Positions 6,211-40,557 of a stretch of DNA of 64,000 nucleotides are shown here, piece after piece. The stretch's first letter is position 1. Each line of letters opens with the position of its first letter. The position numbers and the translations under genes were made by a program. The stretch comes from Octopus vulgaris (Eukaryota), in contig OX597842.1 of NCBI GenBank assembly GCA_951406725.2, forward strand, positions 28,582,001-28,646,000. The letters run 5' to 3'. Below the pieces are notes generated by a model. It was not told the origin of the DNA. It made no database searches and worked only from the letters and a program-made list of their open reading frames with translations.

Positions 6211-6915
6211 CAAGAGATCTGTTTGTTTTTTTAGTTGTTCGAAGAAAAGTTCATTTCTATGTTTTCGTTTCTCATTGTGTTCGGTTTTTTTATGTCTTGT
6301 ACCCATATATGCATGTATATATATACATATATATATATATGTAGGTATGTACATATATTTATGTATATATGCATATATTTATATATTATATATATATATA
6401 TATTTTCAGTGGCAATTTTGATTGTTATATGAATGTGTGTGTGTGTGTATATATGTGTGTGTGTGTGTGCATGTTACATCCATAACGTTAATATATTTAT
6501 ACATCTATATGTACAGTGATGTAAGGATGTGGACACTAACCAACTCCCCCGTTTTATGGATCCCTTATTAACATAGCAACATGAAAGGCTTACATTAAGT
6601 ATATAATTCGTCTTTACTAGACTTGATCTGCTAATTATATTTTCACTCTTGTTCTAGTCCCCTAAAACATACTATATAGTGAGGGATAAATGAAGATGAG
6701 GCTGAAACAATCTGTTTATGACATCTTAATAGATTTATCATGTCCCTAACAAATATCCATTGCGTGTTATAGAGGGACCTTACAGAAGGTTGACTACACT
6801 AACAAACATCAAATGTACATGATCAGGTTGATCAAGTACCCAGTAGAAGACAGCAATGACACATCCACCCTAATTTTCATGTACATTTTCAATTTCTATT
6901 TTTACTTCCACAAAG

Positions 6916-7125
6916 GATTCAGTGAAACTGGAAATTGCGAACAATCATAAAAGAACACCCTTACTGGAAGCCGTGTCTGAAGCGCACATCGGAATAGTCC
7001 ACAAACTTACAACATGCGGTGCAAACATAAATGCCGTCGACAAGGATGGCAATAATTGTTTGCATATTGCAGCAGAGAAAGAGGAATTTCATTCTGAAAA
7101 GGAACATATTCCCATTTTAGATGAG
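6916..7125 (+). CDS. ANK-RING-death domain gene, ankyrin-repeat exon
   Basis: aag|GAT TCA GTG...GAT GAG|gtaag; encodes RTPLLEAVSEAHIGIVHKLTTCGANINAVDKDGNNCLHIAA (ankyrin consensus). Confidence 0.92.
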
Positions 7126-7916
7126 GTAAGTTTTTAAAATTGTTTGTGAATGTGTGTGTGGTTGGCGTTAGGAAGGGCATCCAACCACAGAAACCATGCC
7201 AAAACTGGCAATTGGACCCTGAGCTGCTCTGCAGTTGGCCAGCCCTTGCTGAACCATTGAACCCACACCAGCATGGAAAATGGACATTAAATGATGATGA
7301 GGAGGATGAGTAGAAGTGTGAGCTTGTGTGTGTGTGTGTGTGTAAGATAAAGAGAGAGAAATAGAGAAACGGGCAGACATTGCTTGCCATGTCTATTCAC
7401 TCCCATCCACCTCTCTTCCATTAGTATTAAGTAATCCAGTCAATCCAGATAACCCTAGTTATATTATGTAACTAACTATATTCCATCTCCTTTCACCCTC
7501 GAAGGCATGCTCTCTCCCCTGTAAAGGAGGTAACCCATCTTGTTGGCTATATAAACACAGCCATCACAGTGTGAAGGAAAGGTGACCAATGACAAAGAGG
7601 AGACATTCCCAAATAACAATGAAACAGGGAGGAGGAGAGGTCTGTGGGACATGATAGACGATAACCTTTATAATGCTGGTGCCATGATAAATGCATCCAG
7701 ACCATTCTGGAAGAATTCTTCCCGAAACGACTCTTTATCACACATCTTGCACACAATGTGTATCCACTGGTTTCCTGTAGACATGTCATCACAATGTTGA
7801 ATGTTAGAACACTAGAGAATGGATACAATGAACGAAGGTCCTTGGTGTGTTTTCCTGTATGTAGGTTGTGTATGTTCAACTACATATTTATCAGTCTCTC
7901 TCTCTCTCTCTCTTTC

Positions 7917-7947
<31 letters not shown>

Positions 7948-8904
7948 CTAAACAAATGCATCAACATGTATCCATAGGGAGATCTGATGGTATATATTGT
8001 CTACTGTTTCAGAATTCAATCGACTCTTTGATTCCCGTATAAATAAAGGTCACTACTGATGTGTGACTCTATTTCAGACATTTGATGATCATATGTAAAT
8101 TGTAGTAATGTCTACTTTGGTGAGAAGAAGCCACTCTTGCAGTCAGCTACCCACCCAACTGGAATTGTCTAACAGTTTGAGCAGTTTATTAACTATAATG
8201 TGTTGGTGTGCTGCCTCAACTGTGACACTAATTCTTACTTCCTTTACTTCACCTTCATTATCCAAAGAGGTTTCTTTATTAATTATGGAAACGTTGTTAT
8301 TTTTGGATATGTCTGTGTGGTGTTGCTTTTGTTGTTCTGTCTGTTCTAAGTATTCTCAGTTCTCATGTAACTTGTTTGCTGTCACGTTGTTGTGTTATAT
8401 TTATATATACAATACTCCTCCATATTTCTTGTGTGATGGCCATTTATGGATTCACCAAGCTAGTTGAATAGATAGGTTGTTGTTAGTTTGTTGTGTTCTA
8501 ATATTTGTGATGTTTGTTCCATTATATTCCATATATTTGACCTGATGCTATGATTTGGTTTTAAATTGTTTTTTATTGAATATCTTGTGATATTTGTGAT
8601 TGGCAAATGATTATTTACGCATTAATTACCAATAAACTTGATGTTAATCAGTAATGTTTGTTCTGTTTAATATAATGACCATATATATAAAATATGTCAT
8701 AATGTTGAGAATAGACTAAAAACAAATGAAAATGGGAAATGGATTCAATTAGAGATGATGTCGGAACTTAATATTGTGCAATCAGTTTAAGCGCTGGAGA
8801 TACAAACTATTTGTATACGTAGTTGAACTGTTGTGTAATTTGGGTATCTACGAAGTATATTTGTGAAATATTGTAATCATCATTTTATACTTTGTCATTT
8901 GTAG

Positions 8905-9083
8905 TGCTGTGCTAAGCTTGGGTTGTCAACCGAACAGAGGCTCTCTAATGTAGGAGTCGCTTACTATCTAGCCCACCAGGGGGCCAACTTGTACAGGAAA
9001 AATAATGAGAATGTAGCTCTATTGGACCTCATTGGGGATGCAGATTTGAAAGAAAAATTTAAAGTATTATTCCCCCCACAAAA
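8905..9083 (+). CDS. ANK-RING-death domain gene, last ankyrin-like exon (Mind-bomb-like)
   Basis: tttgtag|TGC...CAA AA|gtaagt, phase 0 to 2; CCAKLGLSTEQRLSNVGVAYYLAHQGANLYRKNNENVALLDLIGDADLKEKF resembles the pre-RING segment of MIB proteins. Confidence 0.85.
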
Positions 9084-10379
9084 GTAAGTATTCGTTGGCA
9101 GTGACAGTTTATTTTCTATTTTGTATATAATCATGTTTATGTTTGTTTAATTTTCATTCTACCAATACATTATACTGCCATAGTGTCTTGATCAAAGGCC
9201 ACACAACAATAGTATGAAGAACAATAAACAAAATGCAGTTGTTATGTGATCCAATGAAGAGCACTGTTTTGGTTGGTAGTTGTACCTCACTGTCTACCAC
9301 CACCCATCTACCTTTCTTAGTTCCCTATTTTAAAGATTTGTGACCAATAAAAAAATGTAGAACTAAACAGTGAAGTGAATGAACAGATTTTGAAGTTGTT
9401 ACATAAAAACAAATGGAATTAATCTGTCTACCAACATGTTCTCTCTCTTCTCTGTTCCAATCAGTTCATTATTATGAAAGGTTTCGTAAGAAAATAAACT
9501 ACACACCCAAACAGTGTGTGTATATATATCATCAACATCATTATCATCATTGCTTAACGTCCGTTTCCATCCTGGCATGAGTTGGATGGTTTGAAAGGGA
9601 GCCCGCCAGAAGTCTACACCAAACTTCTGTCTGTTTTGGCATGCCCAGCAGAGTGGACTGAGTAACACCAGCGCAGGCAAGGCCAGTTTTGGAATGGTTT
9701 TTACAGCTGGATGTCCTTCCAAATGCCAGCCATTTTACAGTGTGGACTGGATGCTTTTTATGTGGCCCCAGCACTGGCAGGGTCACCAAGTGTATATATA
9801 CACACACACACACACATATTTCTGTTAATATTGCTAGAACACTGACACACATCTTCACAGAATAAAATTGCCAGGAAACATAAATCGTTCTGGTAACACC
9901 TATACCATTCTTAGTCTTTTAGGCTTCTTGGTCACATTAGACTCCTGTATTTCATAAGTTTTAGCTGTTACTTTGCCATATATTTGTTAGCTGCTGATGA
10001 ACAAGACACATTATTCTCTGTGAGAATATGCATAACTTTCTTTGTCTGTTGAAATTCAGATATTGTCTTTAGATGTTGATTTCTGAACTGTATAAATATA
10101 GCTCTGTTTTATCCGATAGACAAGCATTGGTTGGACTTATTTATTAGCAAATAATCTTTTATGCAAGTATTGTAATGACATAATGTATACAGAGCTGAGG
10201 TGTACTACAACTTACTGGGAAAGGGTAAAAGAGGGGATGGAAAGCAGTGCTTAGTCAAGTAAAGAAAGACCGTTATGAAAGCTAGGAGTAAATGCACGAT
10301 ACATAGAATAAAACACAAAAAACAGAAAGGCTAACAGTAAAAGAGGCATAAAAAGGTACATCAGGAGTCTAGTGGTCTA

Positions 10380-10726
10380 TGTAGCTAAATAGTTGAATGA
10401 TCTCCCTTGCAAGAAAGCCTATAGAGTAACCTCCCTTCACTAAGTTTCTCACAGCATCTGTGTCATAAGATGTGATTCTTAATTATTCAAGTATCTTAGC
10501 GTTTCTCTTGGAAGTTTCTAGAATATCTAGCATTCCATTCATAAAAACAGCTTGCTAACCCTGCTCTTTGCTTCTTAGTCGATTAGACTTAGAGCCATTC
10601 ACGTCATTGCTATGTCCGTCTGTTTCTCTACGTCACATGGCTGAAAACCACCACTTGGCTATTATTTCTATATTTCCTATCTCTGAACTTTCTTGTATAG
10701 ATTATTTCGTTCAACTAGATGCTACA
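10380..10726 (+). mobile_element. Candidate solo LTR (or small TIR element) with heat-shock element and TATA-like box
   Basis: TGTAGC...GCTACA ends within an imperfect ~22-bp inverted repeat; GAAgtTTCtaGAA at 10511-10523; cataaaaa at ~10540. Confidence 0.45.
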
Positions 10727-11229
10727 TATTAATTCTGTGTATCGTCATCGACCAGTAAATAAAATATATTTTTCCGTAGTAAATATATAGGTCTTGAATT
10801 TATTCTTCATCTCTTTATGAACTCTTGTAAATAACATACACGCAGCCACATCAACACCTTGTACTGGCTATATATCATCGGTAAGAAAAGAATATTTTGA
10901 AGGATGCCGTATCCTGACAGCTAACAGCTGACTCAGGTGGTTTGTTGTGTGCTTAAATAATTCTGAGTGAGATAAAGTATTTCGTAAAGTCATGGGTGCT
11001 GCACTGTTTTTTATTTTAATTTTATAAGAATGTCTGCTGCTGGCTGAGATTTTGAATTCTAAAATGTTGCTAAAGTTGTTGTTGGCAAGATTATGTATAA
11101 ACCTAAGGGATTATACCAGATTAGCTGCTAGACTTCAAAACTTTAGTGTGCTGATACCCAGAGAAACAATACATTCAGTATATGGTGACTAACAGAGAGC
11201 ATTTGCCTGGTTTGGTGATCAGATTGAAG

Positions 11230-13200
11230 CAAAGGTATATAGCATCTAATAAGATGTCAATACCCAGAGAAGCAATATATTCAAGATATGGTAACTAAGA
11301 GAGAGCATTTGCCTTGTTGTTCTTCTCTGAATAGATATTCTGGACAGGATGGGGATTCCAGATTGGAAATGTAAACTGTAAGTGTAGACGTATGATAGCC
11401 AGGCATAATTTTAAACTGATAACTTGATAAATTGACGGGCAGAGGTTTTACTGAGCAATACTTTGATATTTCTGATGATTTTTAGAAATGTGGTTCATGC
11501 ATTGCACATCGTTGTTGACATTAATGTCACAGTCAAGTTCACCTGCAGACTTTTGAAGTTTGCTGTTCTGGAGAGAGTTGGTAAATTTTGGAATTTTCAT
11601 TCCAAAGTGTATAGTGGTGCACCATTCTATGGCCAGCTTGAGTTTGCAATCAGCAGTGCATTGCTGCATTGTATCCAGGTCAGATTGAAGAAAGGATCTA
11701 TAGCAGATAGTTGGCATGTATTTAGCTGATACATAGAAGGAGCAAGAGAAAACCAAGAGTAGTTCCTTGTAGGTCTTCTGTGTTAGGTGCAGAATGTTAG
11801 CTTAGTGTTGTGACTCTGTCTTTTCAACTGAGAATGTAAGTATTTTAAGCAGTTATATAATTTAGTCCTCGCACCCATTCCAGACAGTTGTGCCGTAATT
11901 GATCACTGTGGCATGGAATTAAAGACTTTGGTGAAGTTGATAGAGATAATATCCACCCATGAACCACCATCTGTGAAGAAATTCAATGCAGCAACAGTTA
12001 GGGATAAATCGAAATGGTTGGAGTTTGAATAAGCTTATGAGGGTTCCAGATGTTCCAAAATGTCTTCCTGTAGATCCATTAATTCTGTGAGACTGACTGG
12101 ATGGTAATCAACAGGGGATGTCTGGTCACTCCCTTTTTGAACGGGGGAGGATAATGGCAACTTTCCATTAAACTGGGCTAAGTGTGAATTAGAAGAGGAC
12201 AAAAAGCTGGTGCAGTAGAAAAAGGGTGCACCCTTTGAGAAGCAGATGAATAACACCACCAAGACAAGAGGAAGCATAATTGCACATATGCTTCAATTAG
12301 CATTGCGATATTGCAGAATTCAACAGGTTTTATGGAATTTGATCTCAGTAGCAGTGAAAACGGTACATTTGTCACTCCTTTAATATGGCAGGGTACCATG
12401 TTGCACCTTCTTCTTTTATCCCCTGTTCTTTTATCACGTCCAGCATCTCATCGATATTTCCTGGCAGTCTCTCACATATTCAGGCTTCTAAAACGTTTCT
12501 ATGGCACCGACACTTATTCATGAATTAAGGATGGATGTGCTGAAGGTTAGTCTTGACATCTCCAGAATTGTAAAGTCGAAGCCAGTCAGGGAACTATACC
12601 TTAGTACAGTCGGTGTTCCAGGAAAACGAAGCAGTTTGGTAGTTATGGTGGCTTTTCTTTCTATCCATTAGAAATACTTTTGCAAGATTGGAGTATGATC
12701 AGAGTCACCTAAGGGTTCATCACTATTGAGGCTGATAATTTCAGGAGCAGTGGTAAATATCAGATCGAAAGTGTTGTTACCTTTTAAGGGAGAGAGGACT
12801 ACTTGGGGTTAGTTTGAATTTAACATTAAATGAAGGAAATCTGTTGCATTTTGTGGCCAGTGAAAGATTTCCTAATCAATATTGGGTAATTGAAATCACA
12901 AGTATGAGAACATAGGTGACCATTTTCATAGATGCAGCTCTAAAAAGTTTCGAGGATGGTAAATGTTGATGTGCTTTTATGTCGCAGAAAAATTCCTCTT
13001 GTGACTGGTTTAAATCTTCACAAGCAATTTCTGAAAAGCTTGAGCAAGCATAGACCATCGCACCACCTCCAAGGTAATGAAAGAGGTCTTTGTGAAAGAA
13101 AATGTAGCCAGCCATGCTAAAAACACCATAGCACAGTAAAGAATGTGTCCAGGTTTAACAAATGAGATTGGAATCAGTACTTTTAACTTAGGAATCAAAA
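11230..13200 (-). mobile_element. Decayed CR1/Jockey-like LINE ORF2 remnant
   Basis: Fragments LQSDLDTMQQC...KCTTIHFG-like, VDYHPVSLT and GGGAMVY; multiple stops and frameshifts. Confidence 0.65.
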
Positions 13201-13823
13201 ATAGTGAACTTTATTGCATAAACTGTGGGTATTTTTAAACAATAATTTGTATCTCGATTTAAATCTGTCATGGTTCATGGAAGAGGATATCCTCAGACCA
13301 GTTTGCATCCCTTTTTCATCTGGTATTGAGTCATGATTTAAGGGACCTACAATATGTAACTTCAGGTGTGTATCAGGTGGTGAATGACGAAGAGCTCAAT
13401 TTATCACACCTGTCCTTATAAGAAGCTAAACAGTATGCACATAGCTCAGTAGAAGGTGAATCTAACTCGTTTGGGTTTTGATCCAATCAACTGAGGCAAA
13501 TAAAATTGTTTTGGAGGAACACATCTGAAGTTGATAAGATGTAGATCAATGAACATGGATTCACCTATAACAAGGGGCAGGTTTGTATGCAGGACAAACC
13601 TAGACTGAAGTGTTTTGCTAAAGAACTTTACACATTGCCTTGTCGAGGAATTGAAACCGCAATTTTACTCTATGAGTCCAAAAGCCTAACAATTTAGCCA
13701 TGCACCTCACTCTGGTCAGTCTGGTGTTTCATAATATTCTGTACTGTAAACATAAAACAAACATGTAATATTTGTTAGAAATGAATGTTATAGGTGGGAT
13801 GTGTTTTATGTTTTTTTCCACAG

Positions 13824-13963
13824 ATGTATGTTTTGTGAAGTGAATGAAGCCAGCATGGAGTTACAACCCTGTGCACATACTGTTTTATGTGAAGATTGTA
13901 GCAAAATTCAACTTAAAAGATGCCCTAAGTGTAAAACATGTATAGAAAGCAAAAGGAGAGTTG
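13824..13963 (+). CDS. ANK-RING-death domain gene, C3HC4 RING exon
   Basis: ccacag|A TGT...GTT G|gtaag, phase 2 to 1; CMFC-x11-CAH-x3-CEDC-x7-CPKC (MIB/IAP-type spacing). Confidence 0.9.
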
Positions 13964-15222
13964 GTAAGAATATGATTTGATGATCTGTCTGTTTGTCACA
14001 TGACATTAGGGAATGGAATAATGTTGTATCGACCCAGATCTGTCATAATCTGACAGACGTATGATAAAAGATGTCCCAGGTGTCTTTTCTCTTTGATAGT
14101 ATATCCATGACTACACCCACTGAATATTGTCTTTATCCAAGTAGGAAACCTGTCCCACATCAAAAGAGTACTGTCTGCAACATAAGACTAATACGTTTTA
14201 CTGAAATATAAATGAAATATCAATAAATCTCCAAGGTCCCTTCAGTAAACATCAACTTTTTATATTCAGTTGTCAGCTTTTATATGAGGTTAATGATTTA
14301 TAAGTATCTTGGGAAACTGATAATTAAGGACAACAGTACTTCCTATAACATCACAGTCAGCTTTGTAATGTAAGAATTTCAATGACAAAATCTCAACTGA
14401 GAGTTTAAGGATCTGACTCTTAGCGAGTCTTATATATTCTTGAGAATGAATTCTAGTGTCCCATTTCAGATATAACTCCTTTGCAATAATGTGTAGATAA
14501 ACAGTTTTAAGTTAAGGAGGTTTTATACAAATGTAATGTTTCAGGATACCTGTTATCACTTTCTGCTCCACCTGTGTAGAACCAATCATTGCTCACCTGG
14601 AAAAAGAAAAAGCTGCTTATTAAGGAGGATGAATGACATTGAAATATCTTCAGGTATTTCCTGAATCAGGTGGTATTCTGGTGAAGTGTGATGTGGGCAG
14701 TTAAAATTAAAGATTACCAACAGTAACATATAAAAATGAGAGCTGGGGTATGTTTATCCTTCCTGAAGCAATGTGTCATGCCTTTGTGGCCAGATCTTTG
14801 AAGACCAGTTTGGTTGACACTGGAATTTAGCAGAAGATGAGAAGAATATTGGTTAGTGAAGGTTCGAGATGAGAGGACAATGGCATGTCATGTGACCAGC
14901 ACAGACATAACAAAGGAAAGACAAAACTAAGAGAAAAAGAGTGTTATGAAGTGATAACCAAGTGAGAGAATTTCAGAATTGTTAGATTAGTATATAGGAT
15001 GTCTTAATAGAAAGATGAGATTTAGAAAGGTTTGCCTATTTTGTTGTGGTTCTAAATATTGAACTATTATATAGTAACAGCTTAGAAAGTGTTGACCGAA
15101 AGCATAGTGGTCACCAATTGACTATTGATGATATGAATGCCTTACAAAAATGGAATATAGATTATTAAAAGAGACAAAGAAATTTTACTATGAAGTATAA
15201 AACTTTGAAATGCTTATTTCAG

Positions 15223-15273
15223 TGTGTCCAAAGTCTGAAGAAAAAGCAGTCAAGATGGTTGCAGAAGCTGTTG
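15223..15273 (+). CDS. Linker micro-exon 1 (51 nt, VCPKSEEKAVKMVAEAV)
   Basis: tatttcag| ... G|gtgagt; symmetric phase 1-1, open in the RING frame. Confidence 0.75.
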
Positions 15274-15388
15274 GTGAGTATAAAATAACTGTAATTGATT
15301 TCTATAAATTTTACCTTCACCTGAGATATATTATTTGTGTGAATGACTGAGAACAGGTTCCATTCTTAATTTCCAATTCTTATTTCAG

Positions 15389-15424
15389 AATGTCCAAAGT
15401 GTAAAGGAAAAGTAAAATCTTTTG
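15389..15424 (+). CDS. Linker micro-exon 2 (36 nt, ECPKCKGKVKSF)
   Basis: tatttcag| ... G|gtgagt; phase 1-1, open. Confidence 0.7.
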
Positions 15425-15539
15425 GTGAGTATAAAATAACTGTAATTGATTTCTATAAATTTTACCTTCACCTGAGATATATTATTTGTGTGAATGACTG
15501 AGAACAGGTTCCATTCTTAATTTCCAATTCTTATTTCAG

Positions 15540-15590
15540 AATGTCCAAAGTCTGAAGAAAAAGCAGTCAAGACGGTTGCAGAATCTGTTG
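15540..15590 (+). CDS. Linker micro-exon 3 (51 nt, ECPKSEEKAVKTVAESV)
   Basis: Same splice signals; phase 1-1. Confidence 0.75.
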
Positions 15591-15705
15591 GTGAGTATAA
15601 AATAACTGTAATTGATTTCTATAAATTTTACCTTCACCTGAAATATATTATTTGTGTGAATGACTGAGAACAGGTTCCATTCTTAATTTCCAATTCTTAT
15701 TTCAG

Positions 15706-15756
15706 TGTGTCCAAAGTCTGAAGAAAAAGCAGTCCAGACGGTTGCAGAATCTGTTG
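15706..15756 (+). CDS. Linker micro-exon 4 (51 nt, VCPKSEEKAVQTVAESV)
   Basis: Same splice signals; phase 1-1. Confidence 0.75.
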
Positions 15757-16540
15757 GTGAGTATAAAATATCTGTAATAAATTTCTATAAATTTTATCTT
15801 CACCTGAAATATATTATTTGTGTGAATGACTGAGAACAGGTTCCATTGTTACATTTCTTTCGAATGGTTAGCGATAAAAGTAATTCTATTCGTTACCTAC
15901 AAATGCAAGAATATCCAATAAAGGGGTTTTATAGAAATATGGAAACATGAGACACAGGAAAAATGTCTTTCACGATGAGGCCAAAATACAAAAGATAAAA
16001 TATAAACCCTGAAGCTGTTCTCTCCCCATAATGAGATACATTCACTTTTCTTTCATCTCATTGTTGTCTCTCTCTCTCCTTCCCTGTTTCTTCCCTTCAT
16101 CTCTCTCTCTCTCTCTCTCTATGCATCTACATGTAGCAGCCTCTGTACTTTCCAGTCGTGTAACAACATGAATTGTATTTAAAATATTGATATTACAGAA
16201 ATTTAATAAAATGTCCAGCAGTGTTGGCTCTGTTGCTAAAATGGTTAAATTAGAAAAAAAAAACAATAGAGTTAATATTGTCTTTTGAATGAAGGAAGAA
16301 AAACATTTTGTTGTTTAATGGTAAACAGGTGAGTTAATGACAGTGTTTGTTTGTTGTACGTTTTCAATAAGTTTACTGATTATTGTTGTTGATGTTCTTG
16401 TTGAACAAGATGGTTAAGTTGAAAGCTTACAAGTGTGATCACCCTGTCTTCTTTTTTTCACTGTTAGTAAATCTATCATTACATCCATTAAATGATGTCT
16501 TTGTCCAAGTAAGAAGCTTTGGTCTGCTGCTGAGACAATT

Positions 16541-16574
<34 letters not shown>

Positions 16575-18071
16575 TAAGATGGACACTGGTTGCAAGATAC
16601 AAAACAATCGATGTTATTGTCCTCATCATTTACCGTCTGCTCTCCTTGCTTCCATGTAATGGATGGGTGATCACTGTCCAAGTCAGTTCTTATTCAGAGT
16701 TACTGTCCCCCTTGACTGCTTGAGAAACACATCTCCCTTAAACATTCCACCTTTTCTATGGTGGGATGCCCTCCCCAACACCAACCACTTCATAAAGAGT
16801 CCTGAGTACATTTTAATGTGGCACAAGCACTAGAAAGATTTTCATGTGTCCAACATTGAAACTGGAATAGCTGTAGGTTGCACACAATCAGTCTCTTGGT
16901 TTGTGCTTGTTATGGGGGTCGGCAGATTTATGAGAAGAAATTACTCAGGCGAAATCACCTCAGAAGACATTCATGGTTGACATAAAAATGCTAACAAGAG
17001 ATCCAAAGTATATGCAATCAGTCCTAGATAGATTGGATGGACTAATTAATTGCTCAAGAATGCTGTTTGAAACAAATAATGAATGCATTCTGACATTGTG
17101 AAAGATCAACAGAAGCAAGTGAAGTTCAAAATAGCAGGAGAAACGATGTGAAAGGTTAAAGAGTAACTTGTAAAACGTTTTGGACTGTGGTAGACGATCT
17201 CATTGTCCGATAAGAGTAGAGGCATTGCAGAAACCGAGGATGGGCAATAAGCATTTGCCAAGTCAAAACTTCTGGGCAAAAACAAGATTTGGTGCTTGAA
17301 GTTTGATCTATATCACCATCTTGATAATATATTCTTAAATATCACTTCTTTTGTACCATTTCAGATGTTTTTCCTTTGCGATAATCTGTGTATGAACATT
17401 TGCATGTTGTTAAAGATGTTTTGTGCAAGTATACAGTGTTTTAGGATACTTGCTATCACTTTCTGTTTCACCTGTGTAGAACTAATCATTGCTCATCAGG
17501 AAAGAAAAGCATTTCATTAAGGAGTCCTTAAATATTTCCTGAATCAGATGAAATTCTGGTGAACTGTGAGTTGCATAGTTTAAAATTAAAGATTAAAAGC
17601 AGCAACGTTTGACAAAGATAACAGGTGTGACATGAGTTTGTGTCAAGGTCGTTGATGACCAGCTTGGTTGACATCAGAATTAAGCAAAAGATGAGGGGAA
17701 TGTTGATTAAGTGAAGTCCAGTGGTGAGGGGACAATGCCATGTCATAGGTTTAGCATGGATATAAGAGAGAAGAAAGATAAAAGGTGTTAACATGTGATC
17801 ATTAAATAAGATGATTGCAACGTTGTTAGATTAAGTAGGATGTCTTAAGAGAAAAAGGAGGCTTATGAAGGTCAGTCTATTTTGTTATGGACCTAAATAT
17901 TGAGCCATTATATAGGACCACTGTAGGAAGTATAAAAGTGTCAACCAAACCTATAGTGGTCAGAAGTTGTCCATTGATGATAGGAGTGTCTTACAATAAT
18001 AATATATAAACCATTAACAGAGATCGGGAAATTGTGCTATGAAGTGTAAAATTTGGAAATATTTATTTCAG

Positions 18072-18143
18072 AGTCTGTAATGGTAGAGGAGAAGCATCTT
18101 CATAGGGTGTCCCAAAAGTTGGCAGGTAAATGGATGGAACTTG
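18072..18143 (+). CDS. ANK-RING-death domain gene, death domain exon 1 (ESVMVEEKHLHRVSQKLAGKWMEL)
   Basis: tatttcag|AG...CTT G|gtgagt, phase 1-1; L..VS.KL...W..LG is the death-domain helix 1-2 pattern. Confidence 0.85.
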
Positions 18144-19132
18144 GTGAGTATAAAATACCCAATTAATTTCTATAAATTTTACTTTCAGCTAAACTTTTGT
18201 TTGTTTGAATGACTGAGAACCGGTTCCATTCCTAATTTCCAATTGAAAGTTTAGCTAAAAAGTAAAGCTATCACTGATATTTCATAAAATATCTACAGAC
18301 GTCAGCACGGTTGTAAAATGTATAAATTAGAAGGTCCAGTAGAGTTAATACTATCGTTTGTAAAAGGGGACTCAAAAATATTGTTGTTTAAGAGTAAACA
18401 GGTGAATTAATGACAATGTTTTTGCTTGTTTACACTTTTACTAAGTTTACTAGTAGAGTGTTGTTGTTGTTGATGTTTATTTCGGCAGATATCTGCCTTA
18501 ATCTGGCAGAATTAAGGGGAAAGGGTTCCATTGCTCTTTCTCTTGGGTGAAGAGGACCACATTATCAAGTGTAACCTTTTTAAAATGAGAGTGTGCATTG
18601 TGTGGGACATGTTGTCATCTCTCCCCTGGCCAGTCTGTTTTTCTATATTTACTGTAATTCTTTAGTCCCAGGTCAACATATATTTCCTGTCTCTATAGAA
18701 GACAGGCCCCATTGTTGATTGTGTTCATGGCTGGATTGAACTCAGCATTGTAAGTTAATGAAACACTCATTTATATTAGAAGAAAAAGAATCTCAACAGA
18801 AAATTCAAACTCAACTTGATCTTGTTTCTCAATTGAAATCATTTCACTCTCCTTTACATTACAAATGTCACATGGAAAGGCATGAACATCACAATATCCC
18901 ATTTCCCCTTCTCCGACAGTTTAACACAACATAAAATATCATTTATACAATGCTCCTATTATTTACAGCAATGTCTTCTACCTCCCTATGGTACCTATAT
19001 ACATCTAGATAGAATGAAGCATAGAGAAATGTCTTTACCAGGTACATTGAGCGGTGCTGGGGATTAGATTTGAACCTTTGATCCCTGACTCAAGGGATCA
19101 TGACAATATCCCCTGAGTCAGCTGATAGAAAC

Positions 19133-20008: not shown

Positions 20009-21848
20009 TCACACTCAGAAATGATTTATCTAATTTAAGAAAGGACATCGTCTACAACATTGCCAGCTTGCTATACCTCTGGGTGTCATACAAAATATAC
20101 CAGTCATATACTGGGATAAAAGGAATCCACTAACACCAGGTCCATTATCATCATCACCTTACATCCATTTTTCTAAGTTTGTAATGGTCAGACGACTTCT
20201 CCCAGAGTTGTTGTGGTCCTTTGTCCAGTTTGATCGCTTGTTTCTTTCCACTTGAATTCCAGGCACTTCTTTACCCAGATTTCATCTGCCATGTCCCTTC
20301 TATATCTATACCATTATCTTTTTTCTTGTACACTATCACAGATTCTTCTGAGATCCAGTTATTTGGCTCCAAGTTTTCAACACATTAACATTACACTTCT
20401 AGTGATGTCTGCTCACCTCATTTCCTGGCAGTTTCCATTGCATCTTTCACATTCTACGTAACATTGCATGAGGTGTATTTGTAAAGTGCAATCTCTCCCT
20501 CATATGGAGACAGAATCCCTTAGTTGCCAGTAGACATAACAACTCCCTGTACATTTTTCATCTCGTTTTCCTTCTGTACTTTCAGAATAGTTTCCTCTAC
20601 TTCTAATTCTGTCCTTTAGGTAACAGAAACTATCAACTATGTCTTTCATACTTGTTCCTATGAACTATTCCTGTATATTTGCCACATACAAAGTCCTTCC
20701 TCAGCCCTAACCTTAACCTGCCCTCCCTGTAAACTTGCTTGTTTGTGAATGCAGTGATTCTATCAGGACCCGAGTGTTGTAGGTGTATGGTGTAGATGTT
20801 GGTAAAACTCTTCTCATTGCTTTGTTTACTCTAGGGCCTCTCCTGTATTAGATTCTTTGAAATTGTGGCCTTGATCCAACGAAAGAAGTTCTTGTTATAA
20901 GTCATGAATCCAAAAACCTTAAGCCAATGCCCTCTATAATATGTGATATTTACCTAACAGTATTATGTTTTTACTTTGGGATGGTTGAAATCATTCAGGT
21001 ACACAATCCCCGCTTTTGAGATATTTCTGAATGTTGATAATTTTTAAATATTTATTAATCATAGGTGGAAAAACATCGCAAATGACTATTTCAGGCATTG
21101 ATCACAGGACGTTATCAAACGACTGAGATTGTATTCCTCCAAAGAGTCTCTGGAGTAACGTTACTCAACAAGGTGTGCAGGCTGGAGATTTGGGGTCTCT
21201 CCAGGTCAAGTGACTGCTTCTCTGCATTGAGAATTCACAGCTCCAGTAATCCTGGCATGTGATTAAAATATCACAGGAAAGAACCATAAAAGGGATTCTT
21301 CAAGCTGAGCCAACCGACAGGAGACCTAGGGGTAGAGCAAGAATGAAATGGTTGGATGATATCCATAGTTTCAATTGGCCATGCTTGGAAATCCTTTCAG
21401 AAATTCTAATGAAGGTTGCCTCTGATAGGATCATATGAAGGAGGTGCCTGAAGACTCTTCCCCTACAACCCTCCTATGAATAGAGGGCAGAGAAAATGGA
21501 TGGATGGGTGAAATTATCTGTTGGTGGTCTTTGTCAATTCTTTAGGCTCTCATACACTGCTACCCACACAAACACTTCTCCTGCCAGTTGTTCACCAAAC
21601 ATTTTCTCATGTGTAATTTTCAATTCTTTAAAATATTCTTCTCCTTCTCCAGCCTTTATTTCAAATTGTTTGATATTTTTGTCAACATCTTTAGAAATAG
21701 ATAACAAAGTCTTCTAATTTCCCTGTTTCTTAAGTATTTCTCATTCTTCTATTCACATAATTTCTTTGTCCTAATTAATACAGCCTACAGTACACAGGTT
21801 TTATATTATCGTTAATGCTGTTGCAATTATTTCTTATTTCTTTTGCAG

Positions 21849-22054
21849 GAAGGGAATTAGAAATTAAACAAACTGACCTGGAAATCATCAGGCATGACTA
21901 TCCTCAAAGCGTTAGGGAACAAGGCTTCCAGATGCTGCTCAAATGGCATCAGCTTTGTGATCGAGAGAAACATACACTTCAAATATTAAAAGCAGCTCTT
22001 AAAGAAACTGAATGTTATGATGCACTCAAATGTTTACCATCAGAATTCAATTGA
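21849..22054 (+). CDS. ANK-RING-death domain gene, terminal death domain exon
   Basis: ttttgcag|GA AGG...TGA; GRELEIKQTDLEIIRHDYPQSVREQGFQMLLKW...LKAALKETEC, a typical death domain. Confidence 0.9.
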
Positions 22055-22181
22055 ATTTCTTTGTAAATTGTTGCTGTTGCTTAGTTGCAAGTCTGTCTTT
22101 ACCACAGACCTATTATCAAATGCCTTCCATCCAGGACCATTGTTTAATGTGTCCTTCTATAAGGTGATAAGTAGGATTTGG

Positions 22182-23928
22182 GGATCTTTACCTTTTGACC
22201 GGCAGATTTAGAAAATAATTTTTTGGAACTAAACACTTTCAAACTTCGTATTCTGGTAGAATGTGTCGTATAAAACATCTTTTACTCTTATCGTTTTTGA
22301 GAAAAGTTTATATTTACAAAGTTATTTCGTGTTAAATTTGTCGTATTTCGGTAATTTCAACCAATCAATGGCGTGTATTCATCTGAATAAAATTACTGCC
22401 GTTGTTTGTCAACAACAACTTCTGGCGGTGTATATTTCGTTTGTCACTGTTATTTATGACATATTTCATCTCAGTTATGTTTGTATGAAAAACGAGTCTA
22501 TCTGAAACATGTTTACTTCATGGCACCACCAGAATCGTTCGTGCATTTCTACTGGTTTTAGTTGTTTTTTCCTGTTTTTCAGCTACTATTTTCGCTAAGA
22601 CTTTTTTAACCCTAACCCTAAAACCCTAGCCCTAACACTAAAACCCTAGCCCTAACACTAAAACCTTAACTCTAACCCTAAAACCCTAAACCTAACCCTA
22701 AAACCTTAGCCCTGACACTAAAACCCTAGCCCTAACACTAAAACCTTAACTCTAACCCTAAAACCCTAACCCTAACCCTAAAACCTTAGCCCTGACATTA
22801 AAACCCTAGCCCTAACACTAAAACCTTAACTCTAACCCTAAAACCCTAACCCTAACACCTTAGCCCTGACATTAAAACCCTAGCCCTAACACTAAAACCT
22901 TAACTCTAACCCTAAAACCCTAAACCTAACCCTAAAACCTTAGCCCTGACACTAAAACCCTAGCCCTAACACTAAAACCTTAACTCTAACCCTAAAACCC
23001 TAACCCTAACACCTTAGCCCTGACATTAAAACCCTAGCCCTAACACTAAAACCTTAACTCTAACCCTAAAACCCTAAACCTAACCCTAAAACCTTAGCCC
23101 TGACACTAAAACCCTAGCCCTAACACTAAAACCTTAACTCTAACCCTAAAACCCTAAACCTAACCCTAAAACCTTAGCCTTGACATTAAAACCCTAGCCC
23201 TAACACTAAAACCTTAACTCTAACCCTAAAACCCTAACCCTAACACCTTAGCCCTGACATTAAAACCCTAGCCCTAACACTAAAACCTTAACTCTAACCC
23301 TAAAACCCTAAACCTAACCCTAAAACCTTAGCCCTGACACTAAAACCCTAGCCCTAACACTAAAACCTTAACTCTAACCCTAAAACCCTAACCCTAACAC
23401 CTTAGCCCTGACACTAAAACCCTAGCCCTAACACTAAAACCTTAACTCTAACCCTAAAACCCTAACCCTAACCCTAAAACCTTAGCCCTGACACTAAAAC
23501 CCTAGCCCTAACACTAAAACCTTAACTCTAACCCTAACCCTAAAACCCTAACCCTAACCCTAACACCTTAAAGCTAAAACCAGTACAAACGCACGAACGA
23601 TGTCATAAATAACAACAACAAACGAAATATATACCACCAGTTGTTGTTGACAAACATCATCATCATCATCATCATCCTTTAACATCTGCTTTGCATGCTA
23701 GCATGGGTTAGCAGTAATTTTATTCAGCTGAATACACATCATTGATTGGTTGAAATTACTGAAATACGACAAATTTAACACGAAATAACTTTGTAAATAT
23801 AAACTTTTCTCAAAAACGCTAAGAGTAAAAGATGTTTTATACGACACATTCTACCAGAATACGAAGTTTGAAAGTGTTTAGTTACAAGAAATTATTTTCT
23901 AAATCTGCCGGTCGAAAGGTAAAGATCC
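22182..23928. mobile_element. Non-autonomous long-TIR (foldback; Merlin- or MULE-like) DNA transposon with telomere-like core
   Basis: Ends GGATCTTTACC...GGTAAAGATCC; inverted arms ~22182-22561 and ~23574-23928; 8-bp direct repeat GGATTTGG at 22174-81 and 23929-36. Confidence 0.9.
22607..23570 (+). repeat. Interstitial telomere-like (CCCTAA-derived) higher-order repeat, 20-bp monomers in 80/75-bp units
   Basis: Unit aaaaccctagccctaacact-aaaaccttaactctaaccct-aaaaccctaaacctaaccct-aaaaccttagccctgacact, repeated roughly 11-12 times. Confidence 0.92.
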
Positions 23929-24018
23929 GGATTTGGTTACTAATTCTGGCAGATCTCTCTATCACCTGTAGACCCCTTTACTGGTTTGGTTCCCTCATTG
24001 TTCTAGATAAACTGTGGA

Positions 24019-24024
24019 AATAAA
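24019..24024 (+). promoter_or_regulatory. Candidate polyadenylation signal of the ANK-RING-DD gene
   Basis: AATAAA followed ~20 nt later by a GT/T-rich tract (tttgttgttgttgttgt). An alternative AATAAA lies at 22386 inside the left TIR. Confidence 0.4.
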
Positions 24025-25016
24025 GACAAACTTTGAAATTTCATTTGTTGTTGTTGTTGTAAGTCCCAGCATCTCCCTAAACACTTCCATTGTTATAGAG
24101 ACAGTTTAAATATCCTGTGGAATTTTTCAAAAAACGAAAGTTGTAAATTCCATTTTGTGAAACTTACTTAAAATGCACATTTTTTCAAGTAGAACCTCCT
24201 TGTGGACACAATTGTCAGTCAATATACAGTTTCTATTTGTCTCAGCCAATATTTTTACATTAGCCTTCATCCAAAATCTAGAAAAGGAAACTTACAGCTG
24301 ACCACGGGAGAAGAATTGCGTTGGAAGATATATTCTGCTTGGTTTAAATGTCTGTCCCTGTGCCTTGCTGCATGTCAAGGCAGAGACTGGTTCCACAGGA
24401 AATTGTTTATGTGGTAACTGTGAATGGGAACTCCAGTCATTGAGACCCATGCGGAATCCTTGAGATTACCAGCATTGATCCTGCAGAAGGACCACAAGCA
24501 ACCTCAGCCACAATAATAAGATCGTGCAAGCAGATAATAACGTAGCCTGTGTCATTGCAATGGCCTTGTTTAACATCTAAATTCTTCGAAAACCTAATGC
24601 AGCCTCTTGTCTTTCAGGTTAGGATATGTCCATTGAAAACCTGATGGTAGGAGTTTGTTGATGAATTTGATTAGGTACAGAGCTTCGTTATCAACTGTAT
24701 CTGAGCTTTCTGTATATCTTTACCTCGCCAGGGATCCTGGTCAACATGAATTCATTCACAAATTGTGATATTTCATTTGTTGGAGTAATGGTCTGTTTGC
24801 AAGCCACATGGGGTCTGTGAAGTTATTTGCAAGGTCAGCCTCTACAAAATCACTTGGAATTAAAGACAAAGTTTGTAAGTCAGGTTGATTTTGAATGCAC
24901 CTAGACTTTGTTCGACAGAAATGTCACTATTTCCTACATCTCTCTTTCATCAGAATGATCTTTTGTAAAAAGTCTTAGATTGGTTGTCAACTTCACTACT
25001 TGCACCAAATCCTCAT

Positions 25017-25579: not shown

Positions 25580-27230
25580 CTAGCAGAATTGCCCGGCGTT
25601 GCTCGGGGCTCAATTGCTTGAAAGTACTGTTAATGATTGCACTGAATTATGATGATTATTCAGGCAAATATTGATATAAGCTTACGGTGGGAGATAAGGA
25701 CTTAACGATCAAACGTGTGCCATTGCATTGTTTTGGGGGAACCAAATTTCTGATGAGCATTACCGGGGCACCAACTTTAAGTTTGAGAAAATGTGGTGGT
25801 AGTCCGGGGTGCTCAAAGGAATTGAGTACCTCTATTGGATAGTTGATGACGTCCTCTGGGTCAGGAGTTGTATCGATAGACTGATATACATAGACTTCCC
25901 CAGGAATGAGTTTTAGCATTTCATCATTAATATGGTGAACAGTTTTATTCCTCGGGGCCAGTATAGCCTTTTTGCCAATCCAATCCATATTCTGATAATT
26001 AGCTTGTAGATCTGGGAACACTGCATCTCTGAGATCAGAAGGCGTCTTAACAATGTTACAAATGGAATCGATGGCAATATTACCATTTTCATCCCCTGGT
26101 ATTTTGCCTTCGCCAAGTGCAAGGAGGGTGTGAGGAAATGCCGCTGATGTGATATTACGTCGCATATGAGCACGCATATTGGTGTGAAGTTTGAGAGTTA
26201 CTTCCCTTTATTTAAAAAAATATGCATTAAAATGGAAAAAAATGATGGTAAATTATTTGTAAAATCATAGACTCATCGTAGACGCGCTAATACCCAGAAG
26301 GGCTCGATATGAATCACGACTATAAGATACCCGGTTTTGGTTAAACTGCATCGCAAAATGTGGGAGTAGTTAGGAATCTAAATCGGAGTAGACAGACACA
26401 CAACCTTTCTTTTATATATAAATATTTTCATCCTAAAAAACTTTGTATGGATTGAATGGTTACCTCTATGGAAATATATACACGCACATTATACATACAT
26501 GTGTGTATAGATGAATATATAAATACATTTAAATATCTATATACACTTTTGGGCGATCTTTCTGTTTATTAGAGATAACTTTAGATCTTATTTTCGTCCT
26601 AAAAAACTTTGTATGGAGTGAATGGTTACCTCTATGGAAATATATACACACACATTATACATACATCTGTGTATAGATGAATATATAAATACATTTAAAC
26701 ATCTATATACACTTTTGGGCGATCTTTCTGCTACTTGGATATAGGTCTTATATTCGTCCTAAAAAACTTTCCTGTCACACTCACGCACACGCACACACAC
26801 ACACACACGCACCCTCACACACACACACACGCACACATACACACACTCACACACACGCACACACACACGTTAGCTTACAATTTTATTTATATATTTGCGT
26901 GTCTATGTGTGTAAAGAGGAAGTGGCAGAGTGAAAGAGTCACTCAGTACAAAAAGTGAATTACTTTCACTTTATTCGTTGCACACTGTGTGTGTGCATGT
27001 GCGTGTGGTGTAGGCCACACTAAGAAAAGCATTTGACTTATACACCACAATGTGAGTTTTCTCTAAATTTTGCTTAATTGGGGTTGAAATTTTAAAAACT
27101 GGACCTGGCACGACCCGATGCATTCTACTGTTAAAAATGCTAGGTAAATTGTAATTGAAGAAATCCTATATTGTAGATTTCTATAAGAGACAAAGGGAGG
27201 CAGATAAAATCTGCCTTTTATAATAAGAGA
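25580..27230 (-). mobile_element. Internally deleted Helitron carrying a PIF1-type helicase fragment
   Basis: On the minus strand: 5' TC (27230), 3' hairpin cccgagcaacgccggg then CTAG (25580-83), inserted at an A|T site. An internal ~168-bp tandem duplication lies at ~26425-26730. Confidence 0.85.
25656..26200 (-). pseudogene. Helitron RepHel PIF1 helicase fragment
   Basis: KAILAPRNKTVHHIN, YPIEVLNSFEHPGLPPHFLKLKVGAPVMLIRNL..CNGTRL are PIF1 motifs. Confidence 0.9.
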
Positions 27231-40381: not shown

Positions 40382-40557
40382 AATATTCAGTCATGATACT
40401 TGGTGGTGGTGGTATACGGAGTTGTTTTTTTTAACCCTAGGCCATTGTTGTTTCTAGATGGGCCCCACAAATATTCAGTAATGATACTTGGTGGTGGTGG
40501 TATACGGAGTTGTTTTTTTTAACCCTAGGCCATTGTTGTTTCTAGATGGGCCCCACA
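40382..40557. repeat. 88-bp near-perfect tandem duplication
   Basis: 40382-40469 matches 40470-40557 with about one mismatch. Confidence 0.92.

Follow-up and report, generated by a model that had tools for sequence, protein, structure and literature searches.

Tandem arrays inside described DNA transposons

The Merlin superfamily of DNA transposons is reportedly related to IS1016/IS1595, a placement which is said to go back to Feschotte in 2004. As defined by Lopes et al. 2021 (PMC8101967), Merlin elements possess ends that start with GG, are flanked by target duplications of 8-9 bp, and carry terminal inverted repeats (TIRs) of 24-462 bp. Internal tandem repeats are listed in PMC8101967 for many Repbase Merlin families, the superfamily is proposed there to spread ‘proto-satellites’, and 191 Merlin matches are given for O. 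bimaculoides. In automatic libraries Merlin is, among molluscs, almost limited to cephalopods (PMC10294476). The string ‘telomer’ is absent from the main text of PMC8101967. In its S2 Appendix one end that starts with GG recurs at differing flanks in 11 of the 21 headed Merlin records of Ptychodera flava that were covered, and one record holds, about 340 bp inside the GG end, a TTAGGG tract of approximately 2.5 units as counted by eye. The motif TTAGGGTTAGGG occurs at 36 places in the supplements, the first 19 of which are all in the context of this Ptychodera tract. These supplementary sequences are truncated at about 400 letters, with far ends and duplications lying beyond them.

Three further systems bear likeness to what is described below. 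Tetris of Drosophila virilis (Dias et al. 2014, PMC4079207) is non-autonomous, has been assigned to Mutator via its long arms and 8-10-bp duplications, and contains internal repeats that are amplified within the element into long, uniform arrays. Those repeats, however, are 220 bp in length, lie inside both arms, and are not telomere-like, whereas in octopus a single-orientation array is situated between the arms. The DTC84/pearl-type MITEs of bivalves (Satovic and Plohl 2013, PMC3879986) are, likewise, of molluscs and of high copy number, with flanks that serve as a cassette in which repeat variants are arrayed in order. They have instead short inverted repeats, an AA duplication, and at most five core repeats along with a microsatellite, which are not telomere-like; the octopus element, with its 218-bp TIR and 8-bp duplication, was rejected as a member of this type. 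The telomere-bearing elements (TBEs) of Oxytricha, a ciliate (PMC4724952), are TIR DNA transposons with the host telomere repeat inside, but there the repeats form the TIR tips, the duplication is ANT, and three ORFs are present. A TBE-like identity was rejected as well, i.e., as the octopus tips read GGATC, the repeat lies 425 bp and 358 bp inside the two ends, and the duplication is of 8 bp. The growth of arrays within non-autonomous elements has precedents in Tetris and DTC84, and a general review statement is to the same effect (PMC5615363).

The locus considered here lies within a stretch of 64,000 nucleotides of Octopus vulgaris DNA (‘the window’, the positions of which are used throughout). 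Here a 1,747-bp element, 22182-23928, encloses a 964-bp array that is telomere-like. In the literature covered, neither this family nor any octopus transposon with a telomere-like array of higher order was found to be described, though Repbase and Dfam lie outside of that literature and the family may already be catalogued. The available portions of PMC8967140 and PMC10700109 contain neither ‘Merlin’ nor ‘telomer’. Arm motifs had no matches in 12 of the 33 supplements of PMC10294476, and in the portions of the PMC8101967 supplements covered, where the octopus entries seen are proteins, one 10-letter motif was found at two places, both of them in records from outside octopus, and no other motif was found.

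Anatomy of the octopus element

The element’s first letters are GG and its last are CC, with one copy of GGATTTGG immediately outside of each end (Table 1). An earlier note on this DNA had claimed GG...CC ends along with an exact 8-bp duplication, both of which hold. Of seven boundary positions compared, only 22182-23928 combines paired ends with an 8-bp direct repeat. As the probability of such a flank match by chance is about 2.5e-5 at local composition, a chance flanking repeat was rejected. This exact duplication is observed for one copy, that of the window.

Table 1. Features of the octopus element and of its immediate surroundings, in window positions.
Feature	Position	Strand	Remarks
Last coding exon and stop, ankyrin-RING-Death gene	21849..22054	+	Pfam Death E 4.9e-7; host context, outside element
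Left copy of 8-bp target duplication	22174..22181	+	Exact match to 23929-23936
Left TIR, 218-bp core, GG start	22182..22399	+	96% complementary to 23711-23928, 8 differences
Inner paired block, left arm	22403..22461	+	87% to 23600-23656; CCCTAA-type tract joined at 22458-22461 in other copies
72-bp block, left arm only	22462..22533	+	No partner in right arm
Second inner paired block, 28 bp	22534..22561	+	93% to 23574-23601
45-bp left-only spacer ahead of array	22562..22606	+	No partner in right arm
Telomere-like array, C-rich on + strand	22607..23570	+	964 bp, 20-bp monomers of four types
Inner paired blocks, right arm	23574..23656	-	Pair with left-arm inner blocks
54-bp insert, right arm	23657..23710	.	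Replaces 3 bp; (CAT)n end of abundant interspersed repeat
Right TIR, CC end	23711..23928	-	Pairs with 22182-22399
Right copy of 8-bp target duplication	23929..23936	+	Exact match to 22174-22181

The inverted arms had been put by the earlier note at about 350-380 bp. A long paired core does exist, that is, 218 bp at 96%, but pairing totals only about 300 bases once inner blocks are included (about 56 bp at 87% and 28 bp at 93%), with the remainder consisting of the two left-only blocks and the right-arm insert. That insert is matched over at least 40 bp, at 75-90%, by 16 other places in the window, and the repeat behind it is putatively SINE-like. It has no duplication of its own and marks an event that is later than arm formation. 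When folded as DNA, the left arm shows nothing out of the ordinary (z -1.7). Over six frames, no open frame of the element is longer than 81 aa, and the element thus is non-autonomous. No second copy of an arm was found within the 64-kb window, the inverted pairs covered including the longest 25 out of 1,559, and a search of Rfam over 21500-24600 gave one below-threshold match (E 0.2), outside of the element. End and arm patterns had zero matches in metagenome contigs, viral contigs, and prokaryote genomes, which is expected since this is octopus DNA.

Indels distinguish the inner parts of the two arms, as might be seen were there no single element here but instead two separate arms, inserted head-to-head on either side of an interstitial telomeric site that was already present. 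Eight bases, however, are identical at both outer flanks, with the low chance probability given above, and four subfamily letters that go against the family majority are common to both arms, leaving that possibility barely credible.

With regard to superfamily, the likenesses to Merlin are the GG...CC ends, the exact 8-bp duplication (from a range of 8 or 9 bp), a TIR length that is within range, and internal tandem repeats, Merlin being abundant also in O. bimaculoides. The difference is that the window element has no transposase of its own, its membership being read from its ends and duplication. Merlin-type membership is, on the structural grounds of GG ends, duplication, and TIR length, probable. 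The main competitor holds anatomy and history to be the same but the element to be a Mutator (MULE/foldback) one, moved by a MULE transposase. Long arms together with an 8-bp duplication agree with that assignment, as they did for Tetris, and MULE is present in every mollusc genome analysed in PMC10294476. GG ends with an 8-bp duplication, however, agree with the definition of Merlin; tandem repeats are not found inside the TIRs as they are with the Tetris type, there being none in 22182-22606 or 23574-23928 and instead a single C-rich array between the arms; and a TTAGGG tract in a similar position is known from a Merlin family, at least as seen in the Ptychodera record. A MULE identity seems unlikely. 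The earlier note’s use of ‘foldback’ does not survive in the strict sense of tandem repeats inside both arms, while its structural placement of the element as Merlin or MULE, i.e., as a non-autonomous TIR DNA transposon of what is a dispersed family, is borne out. Ends of hAT or P elements start with CA or TA. Those superfamilies, which would also account for an 8-bp duplication, were rejected given that the octopus ends start with GG.

The array is built from 20-bp monomers that read AA+(AACCCT)x3 with 0-6 mismatches, in agreement with the earlier description of a core of about 960 bp that is CCCTAA-derived. Four monomer types form an 80-bp higher-order unit, and a shorter unit is the same less a single 6-bp loss. 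This shorter unit had been reported as 75 bp but is instead 74 bp, autocorrelation of the array being 0.73 at 74 versus 0.36 at 75. Eleven complete higher-order units span 22640-23495, in the order 80, 80, 74, 80, 74, 80, 80, 74, 80, 74, 80, and it is because of this order of 80- and 74-bp units that the array’s best periods are 154 and 234 bp.

Perfect CCCTAA covers 34% of array bases, with no more than three such hexamers found consecutively. A classical interstitial telomeric site, which would contain a long, perfect TTAGGG run, was rejected on this basis. The array contains four canonical G-quadruplex motifs, and to that extent the capability which the earlier note had ascribed to it stands. 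G-quadruplex potential nevertheless is moderate, with a mean G4Hunter score of 0.89 versus 1.5 for perfect TTAGGG and with a score of 1.2 or above reached in 9% of windows. The motif YAACCCTAR, of which 30 were counted, is a TRF half-site, and these motifs are candidate sites for the binding of telomere proteins. TTAGGG is given as the sole experimentally determined telomere motif of cephalopods in the available portion of PMC13218726.

The gene within which, or beside which, the element resides is one of several Octopus paralogues, named ankyrin-3-like or MIB2-like, that possess an architecture of ankyrin repeats plus RING plus Death; one protein (P0001) displays that ankyrin-RING-Death architecture twice. 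Over 67 aa the product of the last coding exon matches P0002, an Octopus vulgaris protein that bears the name ankyrin-3-like, at 100% identity, and all six protein matches of this exon are Octopus ankyrin-RING-Death paralogues, by Pfam lists, at 70-100% identity. Upstream exons map to 6913-18145. The stop codon is at 22052-22054, with the element beginning 127 bp downstream, and the first AATAAA past that stop is at 22386, inside of the left arm. In a sequencing run that by guess is of RNA (X1), a contig has a loose end exactly at the acceptor of exon 21849, reading by eye as a paralogue of the upstream exon at 18071-18145, and it is because of this that X1 can be said to contain spliced RNA. 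This spliced loose end had no match in the window at three mismatches. Depth in X1 is 1,645 at 22169, equal to the 1,635 of a variant at 22562. The contigs, which cannot establish a single transcript, would agree with a position of the element in the host gene's 3' untranslated region.

Other repeats occur nearby. On the minus strand are a Pif1 helicase fragment at 25656-26207 (Pfam E 1.7e-15), 1.7 kb from the element and probably a Helitron remnant, and a 421-aa open frame at 819-2084 with a reverse transcriptase domain (Pfam E 1.3e-15), the latter a remnant of a non-LTR retrotransposon. Tandem arrays at 15268-15857 and 26423-26770 both have a 166-bp period, with consensus sequences that are unlike, and the first of these overlaps short host-gene exon matches. 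At 40382-40557 an 88-bp sequence occurs twice in tandem, the copies being 98% alike and having a T-run and then one AACCCTA in each; this resembles the array’s entry (22600-22615), a likeness that probably is chance.

Other copies of the element

Contigs from four of 24 listed sequencing runs were aligned to 21300-22630 at 85% likeness, the run types being guessed as three of DNA (from three organisms) and one of RNA (X1), with no listed run labelled as RNA. In the three DNA runs, 123, 139, and 117 contigs have loose ends exactly before 22182, that is, at the element’s outer boundary. These loose ends are a median of 255 letters long and agree with one another at only 0.38-0.40, so that the flanks outside of 22182 are unrelated. 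The element therefore belongs to a dispersed family with many insertion sites. Summed arm depth is 2.4-3.6e5 in one of the DNA runs (X2) as compared with 13-29 for each of the single arm contigs listed, which is not a copy number; the size of the family may be roughly thousands of copies. Among the loose ends listed, 18-66 contigs per run also show different but similar sequence outside of 22227, suggesting a sister subfamily with another terminal 45 bp.

Some of these other copies pass from the arm into telomere-type sequence. Among the joints listed, contigs that connect 22458-22461 with 22607-22608 number 4, 8, and 8 in the respective DNA runs; X1 has none. Array joints make up 4 of the best 15 kinds of joint, beyond which are 37 more, and the letters at the joint vary. 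Each match on the array side consists of 18-22 low-complexity letters at 85% likeness, only 24 array bases being within the aligned stretch. As 22462-22606 is absent from them, these copies are not the window locus, and the point at which they enter the CCCTAA-type tract is also the point at which the window’s right arm departs from its left arm. One joint carries 26 CCCTAA-like letters with at least five differences from anything in the window array. Array joints sum to at least 0.17%, 0.07%, and 0.14% of the depth just upstream in the three DNA runs, while in X2 depth drops tenfold past 22470, from 132,815 to 13,136, indicating that most copies either lack this interior or differ from it strongly. 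A CCCTAA-type tract is thus common to some sister copies, with most copies possibly being without one.

These same observations bear on whether the window’s tract might be a ‘one-off’, that is, telomeric DNA patched into this copy in the course of break repair (e.g., by telomerase) and then expanded, in a family otherwise unrelated to telomere repeats. An interior that is asymmetric and rearranged-looking, the tenfold depth drop, and the presence already of another stray insert in the right arm all are in keeping with such an event. Copies lacking 22462-22606 nevertheless also enter a CCCTAA-type tract, doing so in three DNA runs and with varied joint letters, which leaves a unique patching event only a slim chance of being correct.

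At eight arm sites the depth-majority letter differs from that of the left arm. At four of these the right arm agrees with the majority, and at the other four both arms have the minority letter. Because of the latter, the window copy can be placed in a minor subfamily; with regard to the former, at least four left-arm changes probably arose post insertion.

Probable growth of the array and what it may mean

The 856 bp of complete units contain one private substitution, two shared variable columns, and the one shared 6-bp loss. The rate seen in the arms (4 of 218) predicts instead about 16 private changes in the array versus the one that is seen (P 2.5e-6, or 0.003 at half that rate). With all variable array columns counted, P is 5e-4, or 0.11 at half rate, the latter counting against a young array. 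As units are far more alike than are the arms, the ordered array appears to be younger than the insertion, i.e., the array in its ordered form likely postdates the element’s arrival. Its uniformity could alternatively reflect continuing homogenisation of an old array, or assembly polishing.

It had been proposed in the earlier note that the ordered 960-bp array is the element’s travelling cargo. Under such a reading the finished higher-order array would be regularly carried, moving several hundred bases of ordered, telomere-like DNA to many sites. That some other copies pass from arm end into a CCCTAA-type tract is consistent with this, as are X1 contigs that contain the window array’s monomer types. 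So too is the depth of the array-adjacent contig 22460-22592 (637, 920, and 103 in the three DNA runs), by which near-identical inner sequence is repeated. The latter depth is nearly that, however, of a contig from a host-gene intron, 21505-21813 (660, 926, and 125), both being tens of times those of single contigs in all three DNA runs, which points to amplification along with the host gene and away from transposition. The insertion, that is, may have been amplified together with a cluster of ankyrin-RING-Death paralogues, though against this are the shallowness of the right-arm-type joint, 22460-22534 (38, 56, and 5), and the 12- and 36-base insertions, absent from the window, that the high-depth flank variant possesses. 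Also counting against a finished cargo are the much greater uniformity of array units than of arms and the at least five differences seen over the 26 joint letters of another copy. Regular carriage of the finished array is to be doubted, and with array joints at under 0.2% of arm depth, as a lower bound, the claim is not upheld. What stands of the idea that the element spreads telomere-like arrays is that other copies do join a CCCTAA-type tract, this being no one-off; what finds no support is the finished array as that which is moved. Probably the element spreads a short seed.

What on balance seems probable is that the window element is a gene-less, cut-and-paste copy from a dispersed octopus family, one that likely is Merlin-type and likely was moved by transposase made elsewhere, and that it arrived with a short telomere-like tract which then grew in place into an array ordered at 20, 80, and 154/234 bp. 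A Merlin/IS1595-type transposase, acting in trans, would bind the GG...CC ends and make an 8-bp staggered cut. The short tract presumably would belong to at least part of the family. Following insertion, slippage or unequal exchange could have generated the four-monomer, 80-bp unit, with one 6-bp loss then giving rise to the 74-bp unit and block duplications to the 154- and 234-bp periods. Such a family would sow the seeds from which telomere-like interstitial satellites develop; in Drosophila, Tetris does likewise with a repeat of ordinary sequence. The Ptychodera Merlin tract consists of about 2.5 units, whereas the octopus array is 964 bp with higher-order structure.

A bolder version would have telomere-type tracts, positioned a few hundred bases inside of the ends, be a selected, working part of Merlin across animals (octopus, Ptychodera), recruiting host telomere-binding proteins so as to pair, shield, or silence the element. 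The octopus family, with its thousands of copies, would then act across the genome as a ‘factory’ for telomere-like interstitial satellites, and one of these would now be situated within the 3' end of a Death-domain gene that is expressed. I consider this unlikely.

Interstitial telomere-like repeats usually are taken to be scars that were left when chromosomes fused or breaks were repaired. A telomere-type seed on a high-copy DNA transposon is a different source of such repeats, and one which, if transposon-borne, would matter for telomere FISH as well as for telomere calling in cephalopod assemblies. There is precedent for each ingredient, i.e., repeats in Merlin, Tetris, and DTC84, so that this is a modest twist on the known seeding of satellite DNA by transposons; the gain is not a new mechanism but a clean example along with a cross-phylum pattern that is testable. 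The locus captures, within a datable insertion, the stepwise building of a higher-order satellite, from 20 to 80 to 154/234 bp.
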